A stretch of DNA of 64,000 nt, from positions 18,195 through 82,194 of the IMG/VR virus record IMGVR_UViG_3300020577_006811; one strand, given 5' to 3'. The position numbers and the translations under genes are program-made. Below the pieces are notes generated by a model. It was not told the DNA's origin and ran no database searches. It was given only the letters and a program-made list of their open reading frames with translations. Of this stretch, positions 2-64,000 are shown piece by piece. The DNA is from a virus. Lineage: Duplodnaviria; Caudoviricetes. Every line of letters begins with the position of its first letter. The stretch's first letter is position 1.

Positions 2-478
2 CGCTGGCCCGACGAAACCTACGAGATGTGGCGACTGCGCACACAGGAGAAGTGGGGTCTGTGCGAATGGATCGCGCATTCGTGCAGGCGCTTCAGCGTC
101 AACGAACTTCTGATTGAGGCTAAGGCGACCGGCATCACAGTCGCTCAAGAGCTTCGGCGGCTGAATGGCAACGATGGCTGGGGCATTCAACTAAAGACTC
201 CGCAGGGCGACAAGGTCGCACGTGCCTATGCGGTGCAAAGCACGCTAAGCTCCGGGCTCGTATATGCGCCAGACAAAGCCTGGGCCGATCTTGTGCTTGA
301 GGAAACCAGTTCGTTTCCCAAACACCGCTATAAAGATTTGACCGATTCTACCTCAATGGCGTGGCTTCACGTCCGCGAGATGGGCATGTTGACTAGACCT
401 GAAGAACGGTTGCTTGCCGAGCAAATGGCCGCACAATACCGGCCGCAAACCGCCCCACTTTACCCAGGATCGCGATGA
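2..478 (+). CDS. terL: Terminase large subunit, C-terminal nuclease domain (5'-partial; frame open to window start)
   Basis: LLIEAKATG, PQGDKVARA, FPKHRYKDLTDSTSMA match the RNase H-like terminase C-terminus; lies upstream of portal. Confidence 0.9.
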   Translation, partial: RWPDETYEMWRLRTQEKWGLCEWIAHSCRRFSVNELLIEAKATGITVAQELRRLNGNDGWGIQLKTPQGDKVARAYAVQSTLSSGLVYAPDKAWADLVLEETSSFPKHRYKDLTDSTSMAWLHVREMGMLTRPEERLLAEQMAAQYRPQTAPLYPGSR

Positions 479-58249: not shown

Positions 58250-59182
58250 ATGTCTGAGATTCATGCAGATTTCCCAGTCGCTGGGTACTACAAGATGCGA
58301 GCCTTCAAGGGTGGCCCCTATCAGCCCGTTGTAATTTGGGAACACGAAGGGAAGCTTGTTGCACGCGTCGGGGCGGAGATGCGCGAGCCGACAGACATCT
58401 GGACGTACTGTGCCAAAAATAAGGTCAGCAAGGACGACGCAAAGTTTGCGTTTGATCATGGCCGTTGGCCGAACGAAGCGCCGCCGCCTGCGTTGGGCGA
58501 CAACCAGCCGCCGTCGGACGACCCGTTCGAAGCGTTGACGCGCGAGATTGATGCCGAAGAGGCTCGGGTCAATGCCTGGGTGGCAGAACCACACGAAGGG
58601 GCTGCCAAGGCCGAGCTTGCTTCGAACTGGCTGGCGGCTTTACGCAAGCTGGAGTCGCGCACGGTTGACGCGTTTGACGCCGAAAAGGCGCCCGTCCTTG
58701 CGGAAAGCAAGCGGATAGACAGCAAGTGGCGCGATCTGAAGGCCCGTGCGCTGGCCATCAAGAAACTGATGGACGATTGCTATCAAGGGATCGGCCGCCG
58801 AGAAAAGGCGCGGCTACAGGAGATTGCCGACCGCAAGGCCAAGGCGGAGGCCGAAGAGCGAAAAAAGCAGTGGGAACTGGATCAGATCCGGCGAATGGAG
58901 TTGGCGGCCGAGCACAACATTCCCATAGTGCCCGAGCCTGAACCAGAGATCGTCCCTGTGGTGGCGCCTGTGAAAGTGGCGTTCGGGGGCGCCGCAGGCG
59001 GCCCCAAGATCGCGGTGCGCAAGATCCCGCCGCAGCCCGTCATTGAGGATTGGATGAAGTGCGCAGCATTCTACGCGAGCCACCAGAAGTTGCGAGATGT
59101 GCTGACCAAACTGGTGGCACACGACGTGCGCGATGGCCGGTTGGACTTGCCAGGTGTGAAGATCATCCCAGGAGAGAAATGA
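58250..59182 (+). CDS. Recombination-associated coiled-coil protein (Gp157/Gam-like position)
   Basis: AAAGGA SD; ends LPGVKII; directly upstream of RecT. Confidence 0.65.
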   Translation: MSEIHADFPVAGYYKMRAFKGGPYQPVVIWEHEGKLVARVGAEMREPTDIWTYCAKNKVSKDDAKFAFDHGRWPNEAPPPALGDNQPPSDDPFEALTREIDAEEARVNAWVAEPHEGAAKAELASNWLAALRKLESRTVDAFDAEKAPVLAESKRIDSKWRDLKARALAIKKLMDDCYQGIGRREKARLQEIADRKAKAEAEERKKQWELDQIRRMELAAEHNIPIVPEPEPEIVPVVAPVKVAFGGAAGGPKIAVRKIPPQPVIEDWMKCAAFYASHQKLRDVLTKLVAHDVRDGRLDLPGVKIIPGEK

Positions 59183-60096
59183 TGCTGAGCGATAAGACAG
59201 CGGTTACGGGACGCGCGGTGTCAAAGCTTCAAGCCGGGGCTCCTATTGCCGCAATTGTTCCTCAGACAATTGAGGAAGTCTTTCGGCTTGCGGAACTCGT
59301 GTATCAGTCGGGCCTAGCCCCTTATCAGTTGAAGAGTCCGCAGGCCGTGACAGTGGTTTTCCTCAAAGGCCTTGAGATCGGCCTTCCGCCAATGGCGGCT
59401 TTGGAGTCAATCGGTGTTATTAATGGCCGCGCCTGTCTGTACGGCGATGGCATTCCGGCTCTGCTATGGTCACACGGTTTTAAGATCAGAGAGACGTACA
59501 AGAACGCAGACAAGCTTGACGCTTGCATTGCACGTTGTGAAATCACGCGCCCGGATGGCGAGATGTATGAGTTTGAGTATTCCGCGCAGGACGCCAAAGA
59601 CAATGGTCTGTGGGATACGCGGGAGAAGATTGACGGCAAGCCCAATAAGTCACCTTGGTTTGTATACAAAAAACGCATGATTAGAATGCGTTGCCGCGGA
59701 TGGCTGGCGCGTGACTGTGCGGCGGATGTGTTGAAAGGCATTCCGATCTACGAGGAGCAAGCCGACATTGAACTTGGCCGCCAAGAGTATCGGGAAGTGA
59801 ACGCGCCGTTGCCCGTCCCCGACATCCCTGATGAGCCCGCGGCCGACATTAATCAGGACCAACTCCCCCTGGAAATGAACCAGGACGCGCCCGAGCCGTT
59901 GCCGAACCCCAAGGCCTACCTTGCGCATCTTGAAGAAGAAATGTCGGTGGCGACCACGGCGGATGTTTTGTCGGAGATATGGGAGTCACACACGCAAGCG
60001 TCGGATGGGCGCCTGAGCCGGGAGCATCAAGAGGCTGCTGAGGCGCTTCATGAGAAGCATGAGAAGCGGCTTTCGAAAAACAAGAAGGGCGCCTAA
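59179..60096 (+). CDS. recT: RecT-family ssDNA annealing recombinase
   Basis: GLEIGLPPMAAL..I.VINGR..LYGD; AK..GLW; W..Y.KRM..MR.R.W..RD..ADVLKG. Confidence 0.85.
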   Translation: MMLSDKTAVTGRAVSKLQAGAPIAAIVPQTIEEVFRLAELVYQSGLAPYQLKSPQAVTVVFLKGLEIGLPPMAALESIGVINGRACLYGDGIPALLWSHGFKIRETYKNADKLDACIARCEITRPDGEMYEFEYSAQDAKDNGLWDTREKIDGKPNKSPWFVYKKRMIRMRCRGWLARDCAADVLKGIPIYEEQADIELGRQEYREVNAPLPVPDIPDEPAADINQDQLPLEMNQDAPEPLPNPKAYLAHLEEEMSVATTADVLSEIWESHTQASDGRLSREHQEAAEALHEKHEKRLSKNKKGA

Positions 60097-60155
60097 TGGC
60101 GCCCTGTCTGTGCTCTTTGACATTGTAACGCTTCCCCTCCCTTCAGGGATGGGCC

Positions 60156-60449
60156 TCAACTGTTGGCTTCTGCGCGCTTCATGCGGCGCATCATTTTGTC
60201 CGTCTCTTCCTCGTCCATTTCCTCGCCCTTGCGGGCAGCGGCCATGAAGCCGGAGAAGGTGATTACGAAGTTCACGTCGGGGCGATGGGCGCCCGTCTGG
60301 ATCTCTTCGGCATAACCCTTTGCGACCAGTGCGCGGCCGACCTTCACGCCGTCGCCGTCGCCCGCAGCGTAGAAGTTGCGATAGCCTACGCGCTTGTTCG
60401 TAAGGCCGAGAGCGTGGCGGATGAAGTGACGTTCTTCTGTGGTCAGCAT
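60156..60449 (-). CDS. Cassette-array hypothetical protein (wHTH-like)
   Basis: ATG directly after junction motif; 97 aa. Confidence 0.75.
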   Translation of the reverse strand: MLTTEERHFIRHALGLTNKRVGYRNFYAAGDGDGVKVGRALVAKGYAEEIQTGAHRPDVNFVITFSGFMAAARKGEEMDEEETDKMMRRMKRAEANS

Positions 60450-60463
60450 CGGTCGGGCCTTCC

Positions 60464-60682
60464 TTATCGGTTCAGAGCTTGGTCGATTTCGTATTGAAAA
60501 GATCGACCTTCTGCGGTCGTTTCCCAGGTCGATACGGCATCCGCTCGGCGGAGCAGTTCGCGAAGCTTCTCGATCTCGTCGGCCGCCTTGTGCGCAACCC
60601 GACACTGGCACTTGGCGTGTTCCGGCGTAAACGGCTCGCGGTCGCATCCAATATCGCGTAGGCGTTCAACGATGTCGTCCAT
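60464..60682 (-). CDS. Cassette-array hypothetical protein
   Basis: Motif-flanked; 72 aa. Confidence 0.75.
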   Translation of the reverse strand: MDDIVERLRDIGCDREPFTPEHAKCQCRVAHKAADEIEKLRELLRRADAVSTWETTAEGRSFQYEIDQALNR

Positions 60683-60691
60683 GGCGGGCCT

Positions 60692-60910
60692 CTACTGTTG
60701 ATCCTGAGATAGTGCGGCGTCACCTGCTGGAGTAGCCACGTACTTGTCTCCAATGCGATGCACAAGTCCACGCGCCTCAAGCTGATCCAGATTGCGCCAC
60801 CATGCGCTGCGCGGGCGGCGCCGGTAGGCGGGCGGGAAGTCGCCTTTGCCGATGCCATCAACCTGCTCGCTGGCGAACTTCAGAACTAAGCGCTGGTGCT
60901 CGGTCAGCAT
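60692..60910 (-). CDS. Cassette-array wHTH-like protein
   Basis: LDQLEARGLV...YVATPAG; motif-flanked. Confidence 0.75.
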   Translation of the reverse strand: MLTEHQRLVLKFASEQVDGIGKGDFPPAYRRRPRSAWWRNLDQLEARGLVHRIGDKYVATPAGDAALSQDQQ

Positions 60911-60921
60911 GCGGGCTTCAC

Positions 60922-61101
60922 TTATCGGTTGCGGCCAGAGGCCATCTGTACTCGGATGCGGCTCATCAATGCGTCGCTCAAAGGCCCACCGTTCTTCGCC
61001 ACGTCGTACACGTCTCGAAGTAGCTCACGAAGCCCTTCGATAACGATATCCTGTGATGCCAGCTTGTCTTTGTCGGTAGCTATTAAATCTTTCAGTGCCA
61101 T
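60922..61101 (-). CDS. Cassette-array small helical protein
   Basis: Motif-flanked; 59 aa. Confidence 0.7.
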   Translation of the reverse strand: MALKDLIATDKDKLASQDIVIEGLRELLRDVYDVAKNGGPLSDALMSRIRVQMASGRNR

Positions 61102-61109
61102 GGCGGGCC

Positions 61110-61316
61110 TCAACTGTTGGTTACGGGTGCGAAGTGCGCCAGCACAATTTCAAGCGCCTGCCGAGACACGCCGACCTCGCAGCCGTCCATGTCCAATTGG
61201 CGCTGGCATGCGCGCAGATTTTCGACCGCCTCGTGCAAGTCGTGTTCTGCGACCTGGGCAAAGTAGTCGTCCTGTTCGCGCTGCTGTTCCAAGTAGGCTT
61301 CGTGTTCGCGGCTCAT
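61110..61316 (-). CDS. Cassette-array small acidic helical protein
   Basis: Motif-flanked; MSREHEAYLEQQ... Confidence 0.7.
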   Translation of the reverse strand: MSREHEAYLEQQREQDDYFAQVAEHDLHEAVENLRACQRQLDMDGCEVGVSRQALEIVLAHFAPVTNS

Positions 61317-61329
61317 CGGCGGGGCTTTC

Positions 61330-61548
61330 TTATCGGTTGTCGTCAACGTCGACTTGGCCCACGCAATGAGGGCAATCGACCACCTCGGGGCAGAGGCCGC
61401 AATCGCAGCGGTCCTCGCACGAAAACTGAAGCACGCGGCCATGGTCGCAGTCGCACTGGTCGCGCAGCTCCATCGCCTGCTCTTCCTCTGCCGTCATGTA
61501 GTACGGATCAGGGTTCGGGTATCCACCGGGCAGGAAGTGTGTCGGCAT
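61330..61548 (-). CDS. Cassette-array Cys-rich acidic protein
   Basis: CDC, C.D.CDCG.C...DCPHC; motif-flanked. Confidence 0.7.
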   Translation of the reverse strand: MPTHFLPGGYPNPDPYYMTAEEEQAMELRDQCDCDHGRVLQFSCEDRCDCGLCPEVVDCPHCVGQVDVDDNR

Positions 61549-61564
61549 CGGTCGGGCCTTTCCT

Positions 61565-61789
61565 TTAGCCCTTACGCAATGGCTTCTGCGGTGCCGTGTA
61601 GGCGGCCACCATCTTGTCAAAGACGGCCTTCGGGATCTCAATGCGCTGAATGCGCTCCTCGCCGACCGGCTGCTCAGACAGCCACACATGATGGCCGTCG
61701 CAGAACAGGCCAAAATCACCAAAATGCCAGTTGTCGCGCTCTAGTGCGATCACGTCTTTCTCGGACTTCGCGGCGTGCATAGACTTCAT
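61565..61789 (-). CDS. Cassette-array hypothetical protein
   Basis: Motif-flanked; 74 aa. Confidence 0.75.
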   Translation of the reverse strand: MKSMHAAKSEKDVIALERDNWHFGDFGLFCDGHHVWLSEQPVGEERIQRIEIPKAVFDKMVAAYTAPQKPLRKG

Positions 61790-61804
61790 GGCTTCGGGGC
61801 TTTC

Positions 61805-62119
61805 TTATCGTTTCTTCGAACGCAAAAGCACGTCGATCTCGCACGCTATCCGAAGGGCTTCCGGGTGGAGCGTCGGCGCAGCGTCCGAAAGCCCCGTCAT
61901 GTAGTCGAGCGACACCCCGAATGCACGGGCAAGCCGCACCGCCGTGTCGACTGTCGGGTTGCGAGCGCGCCCGCTTTCCAGCTCCCAGATGTGAGACTTG
62001 GACAGGCCGGCTCGGTCGGCAACGGCCTGCAAACTCAGATCATGTTTCTCGCGCAGATCGGCGCACCGCTTCGCGATGGACGCAGCAACGTCTTCCGCTG
62101 TGGCGCTGCCGATGGTCAC
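61805..62119 (-). CDS. XRE-family HTH protein (GTG start)
   Basis: LSLQAVADRAGLSKSHIWELESG...NPTVDT..RLA.AFGVSLDY; GTGA overlap with the Acb2-like gene. Confidence 0.85.
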   Translation of the reverse strand: MTIGSATAEDVAASIAKRCADLREKHDLSLQAVADRAGLSKSHIWELESGRARNPTVDTAVRLARAFGVSLDYMTGLSDAAPTLHPEALRIACEIDVLLRSKKR

Positions 62120-62406
62120 GGCGTGTCGTCCGGGAGCTTGATGCGCGCCGGCTGGAAGATTGCGCGGATGGCCCACATGGCGCCTTGCTGAATGTTGGTT
62201 TTCGCCAACGCCAGAGCACGGCCATCGAACTGCGCGCGCCGATCCGCTTCTGGTTTTGAGGCATCGTCCGGCCTGCGAATGCCTGCGATCTTGTCGAGCC
62301 AGCGCAAGTACCGCTCTTCCAGTTCCTTGCCCTCGTTTGCAAGGTCAACATTCGATTGCGACTGCGCAGAGTATCCGGCAACTGGCATGGGCGAGTGTGT
62401 GGTCAT
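62116..62406 (-). CDS. acb2: Acb2-like anti-CBASS cyclic-nucleotide sponge
   Basis: GY..S....DL.N..KEL...R.LA.AKT.IQ.G.M..IRAI.QP matches the Acb2/T4 Vs.4 pattern. Confidence 0.75.
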   Translation of the reverse strand: MTTHSPMPVAGYSAQSQSNVDLANEGKELEERYLRWLDKIAGIRRPDDASKPEADRRAQFDGRALALAKTNIQQGAMWAIRAIFQPARIKLPDDTP

Positions 62407-62416
62407 CGGTCGGGGC

Positions 62417-62713
62417 TCACTTTTCGTTCTTGCGGATGGCGCGAACCGTGCGCTCCGCTACGTTGTCAGAACCGCATTGACCATAGACGATCTGGCAGCA
62501 TCGCTCGCGCTCTGCCTCGACAGCTTCCGCGATCATCTCAGCCATCATGTTCACGTATGCGGGGGCATGGTCCGCAGAGCTGATGCGCAGAAGGAAATCG
62601 TTGGCGCGCTGCTTCGGCGTCCAGCCGCGGCGCTGCTCCTTTGCCATGTCCAGCAACTCCCCGTATGCGTCTGACATCTCTGTGCCGTTGGCGTCTGCGA
62701 AGTAGCGGCTCAT
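62417..62713 (-). CDS. Cassette-array hypothetical protein
   Basis: Motif-flanked; 98 aa. Confidence 0.7.
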   Translation of the reverse strand: MSRYFADANGTEMSDAYGELLDMAKEQRRGWTPKQRANDFLLRISSADHAPAYVNMMAEMIAEAVEAERERCCQIVYGQCGSDNVAERTVRAIRKNEK

Positions 62714-62744
62714 GGCTTCGGGGGCTTTCCTATCGATCACATGA

Positions 62745-63080
62745 TCACATGAAGGCGGGGGAGTTGCCGTCAAATTCTGGCTCGCAGGCGACGGGAGCAC
62801 GCGGCACAGAGCTGATGCCGGTCGAACCGTCATACTCGCGAATGAAGAAAACGCGGCTTGCGGTCCACGCGTACATTGGGAAGCAGTCTGCGCCCCCGTA
62901 TCCGTTGTCATATTCCGCATCAAGCTTCGCTAGGCCGTCTTGGCGGGACAGAATTATGTTCTCGTCAGCGAAAGCCTTGTCGCCATAGGTCCTATCGTCG
63001 TGCTTGCCGACGACGATAGCTTCAATCGGCTCTCCGAACTTCTGCTCCACCGCGATCAGCCACTCTTTGATGTTCGCCAT
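62745..63080 (-). CDS. Cassette-array hypothetical protein
   Basis: Motif at start; YDNGYGGADC...YAWT..RVFF..EYDG. Confidence 0.75.
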   Translation of the reverse strand: MANIKEWLIAVEQKFGEPIEAIVVGKHDDRTYGDKAFADENIILSRQDGLAKLDAEYDNGYGGADCFPMYAWTASRVFFIREYDGSTGISSVPRAPVACEPEFDGNSPAFM

Positions 63081-63096
63081 CGGTCGGGCCTTTCCT

Positions 63097-63465
63097 TTAG
63101 GGGTCGATCTGGTACGTCTCGGAGCCGTCTTTGTGGGACTGATGGCCCCAATGACTGGACGGTCGGTGCTGCTCTTTCGTGGCCGTCACCTTGCCGCCAG
63201 CAGCACGAAGGATCGCGTTGCGCTCGTTTATCAAACGCGTGAACATGTCCTCGTTGAGGGCGACGGCTTTGCGCACGGCTTCGTCAAATTTGATCCGCTG
63301 CTCCATACCGTCGAGCGCCGCACTGATCTGGTCCAGCCGTTTGACGTTGCAGGGGTGGCACCAGTTGCCCCACGCCGATTTCGCGCACTTCTCTCCGCAG
63401 CCGTAGCACTTCACGGTTTTGCGCCCGTGGTAGCTGGGATGCTGCGGGTCTTGATAGGCGATCAT
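63097..63465 (-). CDS. Cassette-array zinc-finger + coiled-coil protein
   Basis: CYGC...WCHPC; motif-flanked. Confidence 0.75.
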   Translation of the reverse strand: MIAYQDPQHPSYHGRKTVKCYGCGEKCAKSAWGNWCHPCNVKRLDQISAALDGMEQRIKFDEAVRKAVALNEDMFTRLINERNAILRAAGGKVTATKEQHRPSSHWGHQSHKDGSETYQIDP

Positions 63466-63486
63466 CGGTCGGGCCTTTCCTGTCGG

Positions 63487-63690
63487 TTAATGCGCGTGCC
63501 TGAGCCTGCGCTGCCAAATGTCCTCGACCGCATCCCTGCGGCGGTCGTGAGCGATCTCACGCCCATCAAGCGTAATGACGTTCCACTTGCGTGCAGAGAC
63601 GCGCTCCAAACTGGCCACCAACGACCCTTGGAAATAGTAGTGCCAGACGTTGCAGGAGCCGTCTGGCGCTGGTGATGGTTCGATTTCCAT
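63487..63690 (-). CDS. Cassette-array hypothetical protein
   Basis: Motif-flanked; 67 aa. Confidence 0.7.
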   Translation of the reverse strand: MEIEPSPAPDGSCNVWHYYFQGSLVASLERVSARKWNVITLDGREIAHDRRRDAVEDIWQRRLRHAH

Positions 63691-63711
63691 ACTCGGGCCT
63701 TCCTTGTCGTT

Positions 63712-63873
63712 TTACGTAGGTACCTTTGGGCGCTCAACTTCCGTGCCGTCCGCGAGGATGACGATGCGTCGGCAGTTCGGGCAGCCGTCGATCTGATTTT
63801 GCACGGCCTCGTCACCCTCAAATGGACACGTAGGCGGACCCTGACAGACAATCACTTCGGCCTCGTCGTCCAT
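63712..63873 (-). CDS. Small Cys-containing protein at the head of the array
   Basis: GGAGAGG SD; CQGPPTC...CPNC; 3' end abuts the junction motif. Confidence 0.65.
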   Translation of the reverse strand: MDDEAEVIVCQGPPTCPFEGDEAVQNQIDGCPNCRRIVILADGTEVERPKVPT

Positions 63874-64000
63874 TGCGTCAGCCTCTCCGTGACGTGTGCA
63901 ATGCAAGGCGGCCCTCGACGCCAGGAACAAGACCCTCGTTCAGCATCGCTGCTGCCTTGCCTTCGTCTCGGTTCATGACGGCAAGCAGCACGAGAGTGAC

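Follow-up and report, generated by a model that had tools for sequence, protein, structure and literature searches.

A stop-to-start joint that appears to serve both translation and gene swapping in a small-gene array of a tailed phage

At one end of a tailed-phage (Caudoviricetes) genome record, small genes unrelated to each other are chained together by one recurring sequence, and this joint appears to serve both translation and gene swapping. The DNA analysed here, called the window throughout, is a stretch of 64,000 nucleotides (nt) that forms the final 64 kb of the 82,194-base IMG/VR record IMGVR_UViG_3300020577_006811, which is linear and 82% complete. The array lies on the minus strand from 60156 to 64000, at the extreme end of the record, and runs off it with its head not visible; it consists of 15 small genes, namely 14 complete ones of 53-122 amino acids (aa), called G1 to G14, and the 3' part of another, G0. 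The genes of this array reassort between phages, the motif that joins them is restricted to the array, and the crossovers lie mostly in the core of the motif or directly next to it. We consider it quite probable that this stop-start module acts as a microhomology patch for the shuffling of gene cassettes in the distal part of a phage early operon.

In the direction of the array, the module contains the last codons and the stop of one gene, a purine-rich Shine-Dalgarno sequence (SD), a (G/C)CCC(G) core, a spacer of 3-8 nt and the ATG of the next gene. It is 15-27 nt long, is found at 12 of the 14 gene-gene joints, where the gap from stop to start is 8-31 nt, and is also carried by the end of G14. 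All copies are on the minus strand, the core lies 3-8 nt from the start in each, and all 12 starts are ATG. The two joints of another type are G0/G1, with a 4-nt gap, and G6/G7, with a GTGA overlap. The fullest form, GGAAAGGCCCGACCGATG, has three exact copies and one with two changes, and the 18-mer with up to three mismatches occurs four times where 0.15 occurrences would be expected. Sub-variants recur at joints that are not adjacent: a 23-mer at 63100-63078 and 61568-61546; CAACAGTWGAGGCCC at 61119-61105, 60700-60686 and 60165-60151; and GAAAGCCCC(C)GAAGCCATG at 62729-62711 and 61804-61787. The joints are thereby built from a few types of left half and a few types of right half, and the direct-repeat families of the region are all located in joints, among them 19-nt perfect repeats on either side of G3 (63481-63463 and 63096-63078). 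The module also covers the ends of the upstream proteins: NR for G9, G11 and G13, KR for G7, NS for G10 and G14, and QQ for G12. The same 15-mer ends G10 and G14 (NS-TGA) and, one frame over, G12 (QQ-TAG); since it is read in two frames, the joint must be conserved at the level of DNA or RNA and not of protein. An earlier note on this DNA, made from the letters alone, had listed about 12 such junctions together with the C-termini and the positions of the sub-variants, and all of these were found as it gave them. Its further statements that the genes are mutually unrelated and that the joints hold no attC-like palindromes stand as well: an all-against-all BLASTP comparison puts the 14 complete genes into 14 separate families, and the joints were found to be free of local inverted repeats.

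This module belongs to the array specifically. Searched for in a loose form (a purine run, [GC]CCC, 2-7 nt, and an ATG opening a reading frame of at least 40 aa), it gives 12 matches within the 3.5-kb array, while both strands of the remaining 78 kb together give 14, most of them away from real starts. Similar SDs (GAAAGG or AGGAG, with C-rich spacers) are used elsewhere in the phage, but with spacers that differ from that of the module. The joints carry no terminators, the sole strong terminator being the one after the last gene (60105-60086), and no promoter-like site was found on the array strand between 59000 and 64000 (one site in all, on the other strand; 1.4 in shuffled sequences). We also considered the core as a Chi-like hotspot and dropped the idea, the core hexamers having no strand bias outside the array (34 vs 41). 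The joints G8/G9 and G5/G6 remain alike past the ATG, over the first 4-5 codons of two unrelated genes, G9 and G6 (61536-61548 and 62394-62406, minus strand); the homology patch can therefore reach into N-terminal coding sequence.

Contigs nearly identical to the stretch come from riverine metagenomes, possibly its origin, and parts of it were found in wastewater, freshwater and other metagenomes (11 studies) and in no RNA run searched. GenBank phage records gave a single weak 250-nt match to the phage, which therefore has no cultured relative. Relatives were collected by exact-protein look-up in public assemblies, and 21 loci were clustered into families; loci and contigs are given L numbers here. 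Proteins identical to G3, G9 and G1 have many different neighbourhoods in independent metagenomes. An identical G3 has four upstream partners and at least three downstream ones, or four with G6, which it meets in L140 and in a contig joint described below. An identical G9 is present in 63 blocks of the collection on otherwise differing backbones, with lysozyme and a 6,099-aa protein, with Rad52 and ParA, with ribonucleotide reductase, or with tail-fibre genes; among the 21 clustered loci it has six upstream and five downstream partners, and so has G10. The order is permuted as well: G9 is followed by G10 in the window and G10 by G9 in L134, while G3 stands after G2 in the window and before G0 in L127. 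With L136, an unrelated 18.5-kb contig, the window has only 240 nt in common, 61559-61320, at 100% identity and from core to core, which is exactly one cassette (G9). The cassettes in common with L133 differ in identity (G10 93%, G0-G1 82%, G9 99.6%) and must therefore have had separate histories. L137 has the same backbone, with 99% identity along 3.5 kb on the RecT side, and G11-G14 are missing from it; the break falls in a 16-nt repeat found at both ends of the missing block (61120-61105 and the end of G14). All this shows that single cassettes are transferred between unrelated backbones.

Homology ends were determined pairwise, for matches of at least 90% identity and at least 100 nt. Within the array, 185 of 212 such internal ends fall within -30 to +5 of a start codon, a zone that makes up 12% of array positions; these ends are not independent events, and a binomial P is only indicative. 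Most of the remaining ends follow directly on the stop of the last gene annotated there. In four other studies, one run each, contigs aligned to the window contained seven joints between distant positions, with at least 11 of the 14 ends in motif joints: 62403>63078, which joins G3 to G6 with 11 letters in common and was found in three studies; 62411>62721, which joins G4 to G6; 61561>63703; 61568>62410; 61568>63891; 62426>63693; and 63476>61099, which joins G10 back to G3 and was found in one run. This last joint is what an excised G3-G10 circle or a tandem duplication would give, and another phage with that order could supply it equally well.

The breakpoints can be assigned to individual joints of the minus strand. 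Joints of the ordinary motif type are G1/G2 (63688-63714; breakpoints 63693 and 63703), G2/G3 (63463-63489; breakpoints 63463-63488), G3/G4 (63078-63099; the joint with 62403 named above), G7/G8 (61787-61807; homology ends at 61796), G8/G9 (61546-61567; breakpoints 61559-61568), G9/G10 (61314-61332; homology ends 61311-61329) and G13/G14 (60447-60466). G4/G5 (62711-62747; joined to 62411 at 62721) is a long form of the motif and G5/G6 (62404-62419) a short one. G10/G11 (61099-61112; homology ends 61096-61105) is also short, with the motif reaching into the last codons of G10, and G12/G13 (60680-60694) is a short form with the 15-mer type of G10 in another frame, while G11/G12 (60908-60924) is degenerate. 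The half-joint at the end of G14 (60151-60165) has the left half and the core only, and is the right end of the G11-G14 deletion or insertion seen with L137. The earlier note had proposed shuffling and had named a fixed gene order in relatives, with breakpoints away from the motif, as the result that would speak for a strong ribosome-binding site only; the relatives do not keep the same gene order, and the breakpoints lie in the motif.

The two halves of the joint have different affiliations. Where the upstream gene is the same, the half with stop and SD is identical in 26 of 30 comparisons (control 1 of 41); where the downstream gene is the same, the half with spacer and ATG is identical in 22 of 41 (control 1 of 30), an undercount owing to the CCC/CCCC register. 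The left half thus follows the upstream gene and the right half the downstream gene, so that the crossovers must lie mostly in the core or next to it. It follows that a cassette extends from spacer and ATG to stop and SD, and that it carries the SD of its downstream neighbour and not its own; the view of the earlier note that each gene arrives with its own translation signal is therefore not borne out. The recombinant joints are seamless and free of gene remnants, each being an exact chimera of two known half-joints, and for the observed recombinants the identical stretch between the joints of the window itself is 6-19 nt. The two non-motif joints serve as an internal control, as it is these that stay linked in close relatives: a close variant of G0 is followed by G1 at 9 of 9 loci, and G6 is always followed by G7.

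Beyond the last gene of the array lies a gene for a RecT-like single-strand annealing protein (59182-60096, plus strand; 304 aa as called on L135). It matches PHROGs (phrog_561, E 1e-14; phrog_4171, E 2e-13) and no Pfam family at E 0.01 or better, while a 301-aa gene at the same position on a syntenic contig carries PF03837. The gene is on the strand opposite to the array and convergent with it, across the intrinsic terminator that closes the operon (60105-60086, minus strand; an 8-bp stem with 7 G-C pairs and a T run). The claim that RecT is encoded immediately next to the array thus holds as to place for a RecT-like gene, with the qualification that the two are oppositely oriented and meet at a terminator. 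What adjoins the related arrays varies with the backbone: on some it is a RecT-like or Rad52-like gene, on others genes for lysis or tails.

Based on these observations, we suggest the following mechanism. The array would be the distal part of an early operon, with about 11 single genes and two fixed pairs, G0+G1 and G6+G7. To judge from its position, the module most likely serves in the mRNA to restart translation for the next gene. On the DNA it recurs in direct orientation about every 250 bp and is found in other phages of the same habitats too, and the microhomology at the joints would allow cassettes to be deleted, inserted, permuted and exchanged between genomes. The agent is most likely the single-strand annealing protein of the phage, RecT-like here and Rad52-like on another backbone, or else template switching during replication. 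We infer this enzymology, and favour annealing or template switching, because an annealing gene is adjacent, no recombinase is found in the record, the joints have no dyad symmetry and the crossovers are not strictly fixed. Two mutually reinforcing causes probably keep the joints uniform: on the one hand a role in restarting translation or in common regulation, such as has been proposed for the start-associated sequences of mycobacteriophages (PMC3203893), and on the other the spread of an exchangeable joint.

Several points weigh against a recombinogenic joint. Some exchanges are off the motif: a G7 that is 99% identical occurs in L132 with another partner and the same 4-nt overlap as at G6/G7, and the break at 63891 lies inside coding sequence, 13 nt before the stop of G0. 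A diverged relative of G0 (L139:3777-3896; partial in L137:149-268) has the body of G0 with another tail, followed by f25, a 133-aa DUF7694 gene. Exchanges of this kind, within the two-gene cassettes, are older, and the contigs indicate that the motif is the main place of exchange and not the sole one. The recombinogenic role of the joint rests on contig comparison, all comparison sequences being short-read metagenome contigs, and the head of the array is missing from the record. Selection for intact genes also leaves breakpoints between genes, and nearly all of the intergenic space is motif. Homology of 6-19 nt is short for efficient annealing of the RecT or Red type. Finally, the conservation of the joint could be mainly owed to a function in translation or RNA binding. 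In L139 a module of 77 and 133 aa occurring twice was considered as a duplication and rejected, the copies having no sequence similarity.

A function in translation or RNA binding leads to the alternative that survives best, which we nonetheless regard as rather doubtful: the joint might be an mRNA operator through which one regulator silences the early cassettes together, be it a translational repressor or a processing enzyme, with recombination as a side effect. Mycobacteriophage start-associated sequences may act in this manner. The CCC(G) core cannot pair with 16S rRNA. Conserved positions beside the SD that are unable to pair in this way have been used as an argument of this kind for start-associated sequences (PMC3203893), and the confinement of the motif to one co-regulated early operon, as well as similar joints ahead of small genes in arrays of soil and other metagenomes that are unrelated in other respects (L040, L301, L302, L384), would fit such an operator. 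On the other hand, it has no candidate regulator, no conserved RNA structure was seen, though no search aimed at one was made, and it leaves the conserved last codons of the upstream genes unexplained; it is also compatible with microhomology-based shuffling and does not exclude it.

A more conventional view would be that the joint is only a strong, coupled ribosome-binding site, and that random illegitimate recombination is followed by selection for breaks between genes. The module is indeed placed as a ribosome-binding site should be, with the purine run 8-9 nt from the start and 12 of 12 starts being ATG. The purine run can pair with a 16S tail of the CCUUUCU type. Other genes of the phage, too, use GAAAGG or AGGAG with C-rich spacers, and a few breakpoints are outside the motif. 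We still find this view improbable: random joining does not account for seamless joints that are exact chimeras of known half-joints, the conserved stretch exceeds what an SD needs (it takes in core, spacer and the last 2-3 codons, in two reading frames), no other gene start in this genome has the motif, and cassettes of 99-100% nucleotide identity in many contexts call for frequent events.

A dedicated site-specific system, integron-like and cutting the CCC(G) core, with its enzyme encoded at the missing head of the array, would account for crossovers that map to a short core common to nearly all joints. The 82-kb record, 82% complete and without the array head, contains no genes for tyrosine (PF00589) or serine (PF00239) recombinases, in agreement with the earlier description of the array as integrase-free. 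That description is less secure for the related arrays: true invertase or resolvase genes lie near the array heads of L144 and of a GCA_020051655.1 contig, and a conserved protein of about 193 aa with a resolvase fold, belonging to no Pfam or PHROG family, heads related arrays on four other backbones (copies at L133:699-1280, L127:277-864, L132:566-1141 and L139:1800-2390, all minus strand, and L387:8001-8603, plus strand). The record holds no homologue of this protein either.

A structure model of the 193-aa protein built on 4 sequences was too poor for use (pLDDT 59). The AlphaFold model used here (pLDDT 84) has the layout of a small serine recombinase, with a catalytic fold, an E-helix and a C-terminal helix-turn-helix (HTH); it matches the catalytic domain of gamma-delta resolvase (2gm5_D) with a VIA Z of 14.4 and a root-mean-square deviation of 2.5 over 114 residues, Foldseek gives E 6.5e-5, and the alignments to 1gdt and 1zr2 are full-length. 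With residues 8..135 in register with 2..127 of resolvase, an invariant H16 takes the position of the resolvase nucleophile S10, R14 is retained (R8 in resolvase), and no conserved Ser or Thr is present in the nucleophile segment. By sequence, the protein has no PF00239 match even at E 10, a PDB search was empty, and hhalign against an invertase aligned only 18 residues with 2% probability. On the strength of the model, the protein may be a resolvase-derived regulator or an unusual enzyme, and the simpler reading would be a resolvase-derived repressor of the early promoter, which accounts for the protein equally well. The His at the nucleophile position, the missing dyad symmetry and hairpins of the joint, and crossover positions that vary (the f4 joints, for example, differ left of the core) likewise argue against site-specific cutting, which we hold to be quite improbable. 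It would take a still bolder speculation, to which we give very little credence, to make the CCC(G) core the crossover point of a phage-borne cassette platform, with the 193-aa protein or a partner binding or cutting the joints. If this were true, there would be a dedicated platform by which single anti-defence genes are captured and moved between unrelated phages, integron-like and yet without attC.

That the variant orders are chimeric assemblies at the repeated joint can be set aside as next to impossible although all comparison sequences are short-read contigs, since the longest stretch common to two joints, 23-27 nt, is below assembler k (31 for Logan contigs, and above 23-27 nt for the other assemblers too), the order f4-G0-G1-f6-f7-G9 is found in five runs, the joint 62403>63078 in three studies and the order of L133 in two NCBI assemblies.

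Among described systems, the closest is the shuffling of promoter-early stem-loop (PeSL) cassettes in the hyperplastic regions of T4-type phages (Arbiol et al. 2010, PMC2839356; Comeau et al. 2014, PMC4122927). In both, a short regulatory repeat lies in direct orientation between small non-essential early genes, and gene gain, loss and replacement between relatives have their breaks in the repeat. PeSL differs in that the repeat is a sigma-70 promoter with a terminator hairpin, making each gene its own transcription unit; neither is present at the joints described here, where the repeat, with only 15-27 nt, is far shorter and is a translational joint between genes of a single operon. Among the features compared, mini-circles are reported for PeSL only.

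In form and position, the closest likeness is to the start-associated sequences (SAS) of Cluster K mycobacteriophages (Pope et al. 2011, PMC3203893). These too are asymmetric and in one orientation, lie a few nt upstream of the mostly ATG starts of non-structural genes from unrelated families, consist of an SD with conserved flanks ending in CCC, and sometimes hold the upstream stop. At 62734-62721 the joint has a form, GATAGGAAAGCCCC, that is similar to the SAS consensus GGGATAGGAGCCC, and 13 nt are too short to judge common descent; allowing up to two deviations, no copy of the 13-bp consensus was found on reading the joints, this nearest form having a longer purine run, and the GenBank phage search gave no match to a Cluster K relative. 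In contrast to the joints, SAS are scattered over half a genome in 11-19 copies and not chained, about half of them carry an extra 17-bp inverted repeat, the host phylum differs, and a role in gene exchange is unreported for them.

The short conserved boundary (linker) sequences of lambdoid phages, summarised in PMC3029335, are similar in that homologous recombination takes place at short module boundaries without a site-specific enzyme. Those boundaries are few and separate multi-gene modules, whereas here almost each gene has a joint at its border, and a core of a few nt can be named as the place of crossover. Integrons, like this array, are one-directional chains of promoterless small cassettes behind one upstream promoter, with an order that varies between relatives. 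Unlike in integrons, there is no IntI-type integrase in the 82-kb record and no attC hairpin at the joints, the gaps are 8-31 nt, and the boundary runs between SD and start codon. Relaxed recombination by phage Rad52-like or Red recombinases has been proposed to generate mosaicism (Martinsohn et al. 2008, PMC2327257), and an annealing protein encoded by the phage beside the variable region is a plausible agent in the present case as well; that work reportedly deals with diverged homologous genes hundreds of bp long, as opposed to joints of about 20 nt between unrelated genes.

Turning to the cassettes themselves, the Acb2-like gene of the earlier note is G6 (62406-62116, minus strand as are all array genes; 96 aa), an Acb2/Tad1 hairpin-domain protein that matches PF24729 (Acb2_Tad1_hairpin) with E 5.4e-16 and 59 bits (cut-off 27) over positions 1-58 of the 58-position profile. 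G6 is a candidate sponge for cyclic-nucleotide immune signals. G7 (62119-61805; 104 aa), whose GTG start overlaps the stop of G6, encodes an XRE-type HTH protein (HTH_3, E 2.5e-14) that may be an Aca-like partner of G6. For the other cassettes no function could be assigned in Pfam, PHROGs and Atlas, G13 and G14 having been scanned in Pfam only. The idea that this is an array of anti-defence genes therefore has one sound point in G6, with its HTH partner, while the remaining genes, without assignable function, may have such a role.

Of these, G0 (>64000-63878) is the 3' part of a 78-aa gene that is cut by the end of the record and found at full length in L127 (2021-2257). G1 (63873-63712; 53 aa), 4 nt from G0 across a non-motif joint, and G9 (61548-61330; 72 aa), the most widespread cassette, are both Cys-rich, and G3 (63465-63097; 122 aa) has CxxC pairs and no family. 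G4 (63080-62745; 111 aa) and G12 (60910-60692; 72 aa) gave only weak, uninformative matches, G4 to a PHROG of unknown function and G12 to the winged-helix-like PF25213 at 25 bits, below the cut-off of 35. No family was found for G2 (63690-63487; 67 aa), G5 (62713-62417; 98 aa), which is absent from L141 and from one metagenome-run contig, G8 (61789-61565; 74 aa), G10 (61316-61110; 68 aa), G11 (61101-60922; 59 aa) or G13 (60682-60464; 72 aa). G14 (60449-60156; 97 aa) is the last gene of the operon.

Related loci add some observations on gene content. In L132 (1630-2147, plus strand) a homologue of G7 at 99% identity is overlapped by an unrelated 68-aa gene and not by the Acb2-like G6; the G7-type HTH looks like an Aca-type regulator common to different anti-defence genes, and the 68-aa product would then be a candidate anti-defence protein. 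A recurrent cassette of 68-73 aa in related arrays (L139:3023-3229, L144:5084-5290, L145:35-256, L146:1083-1304) matches the RF-1 (peptidyl-tRNA hydrolase) domain PF00472, which is odd for a phage early gene. On the ribonucleotide-reductase backbone, the long gaps near G10 and G9 (L134:5700-9780) hold T-loop-like GGTTCGA(A/T)TCC strings and so may contain a cluster of tRNA genes. In related arrays, the genes at the beginning have a second conserved start context, of the ACGGGAGAYG...CATG type and not the CCC-core joint (L127:910-946, L129:244-280 and 514-550, L130:542-578).

The joint was also searched for beyond the relatives. In IMG/VR the exact 18-mer is found in one other contig, L005, at two joints, and a 14-mer gives mostly single chance matches; in species genomes a 17-mer gives single matches only, many of them in Rhodobacterales and Sphingomonadales, and no arrays. 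In JGI metagenomes the same 17-mer retrieved a few more arrays with the same joint type and other genes (L040, L301, L302, L314, L384). Chains of small genes with a AAGGCCCGACCGATG-type joint lie at L040:6200-8100 (minus strand), L384:3600-4650 (plus strand), L005:4000-4170 (minus strand) and on the minus strand of L301, L302 and L314; L005, the only one of these compared with the window by DNA, gave no match. The joint type may thus be wider than the present phage group.

It has long been disputed whether phage mosaicism arises by recombination at shared linkers or by random illegitimate joining followed by selection; to our knowledge, linkers are hard to find at most phage boundaries. The linker of this array is explicit, marks almost every boundary between genes and is still at work in the populations of today, as cassettes of 99-100% identity occur in many orders and on unrelated backbones in river, wastewater and freshwater. 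The array is thus a natural system for measuring the roles of a 15-27-nt joint in exchange and in translation, and the assignment of the SD to the upstream cassette is a design rule that is undescribed for the known systems compared. The joint is also a handle for fishing pools of small early genes as anti-defence candidates.

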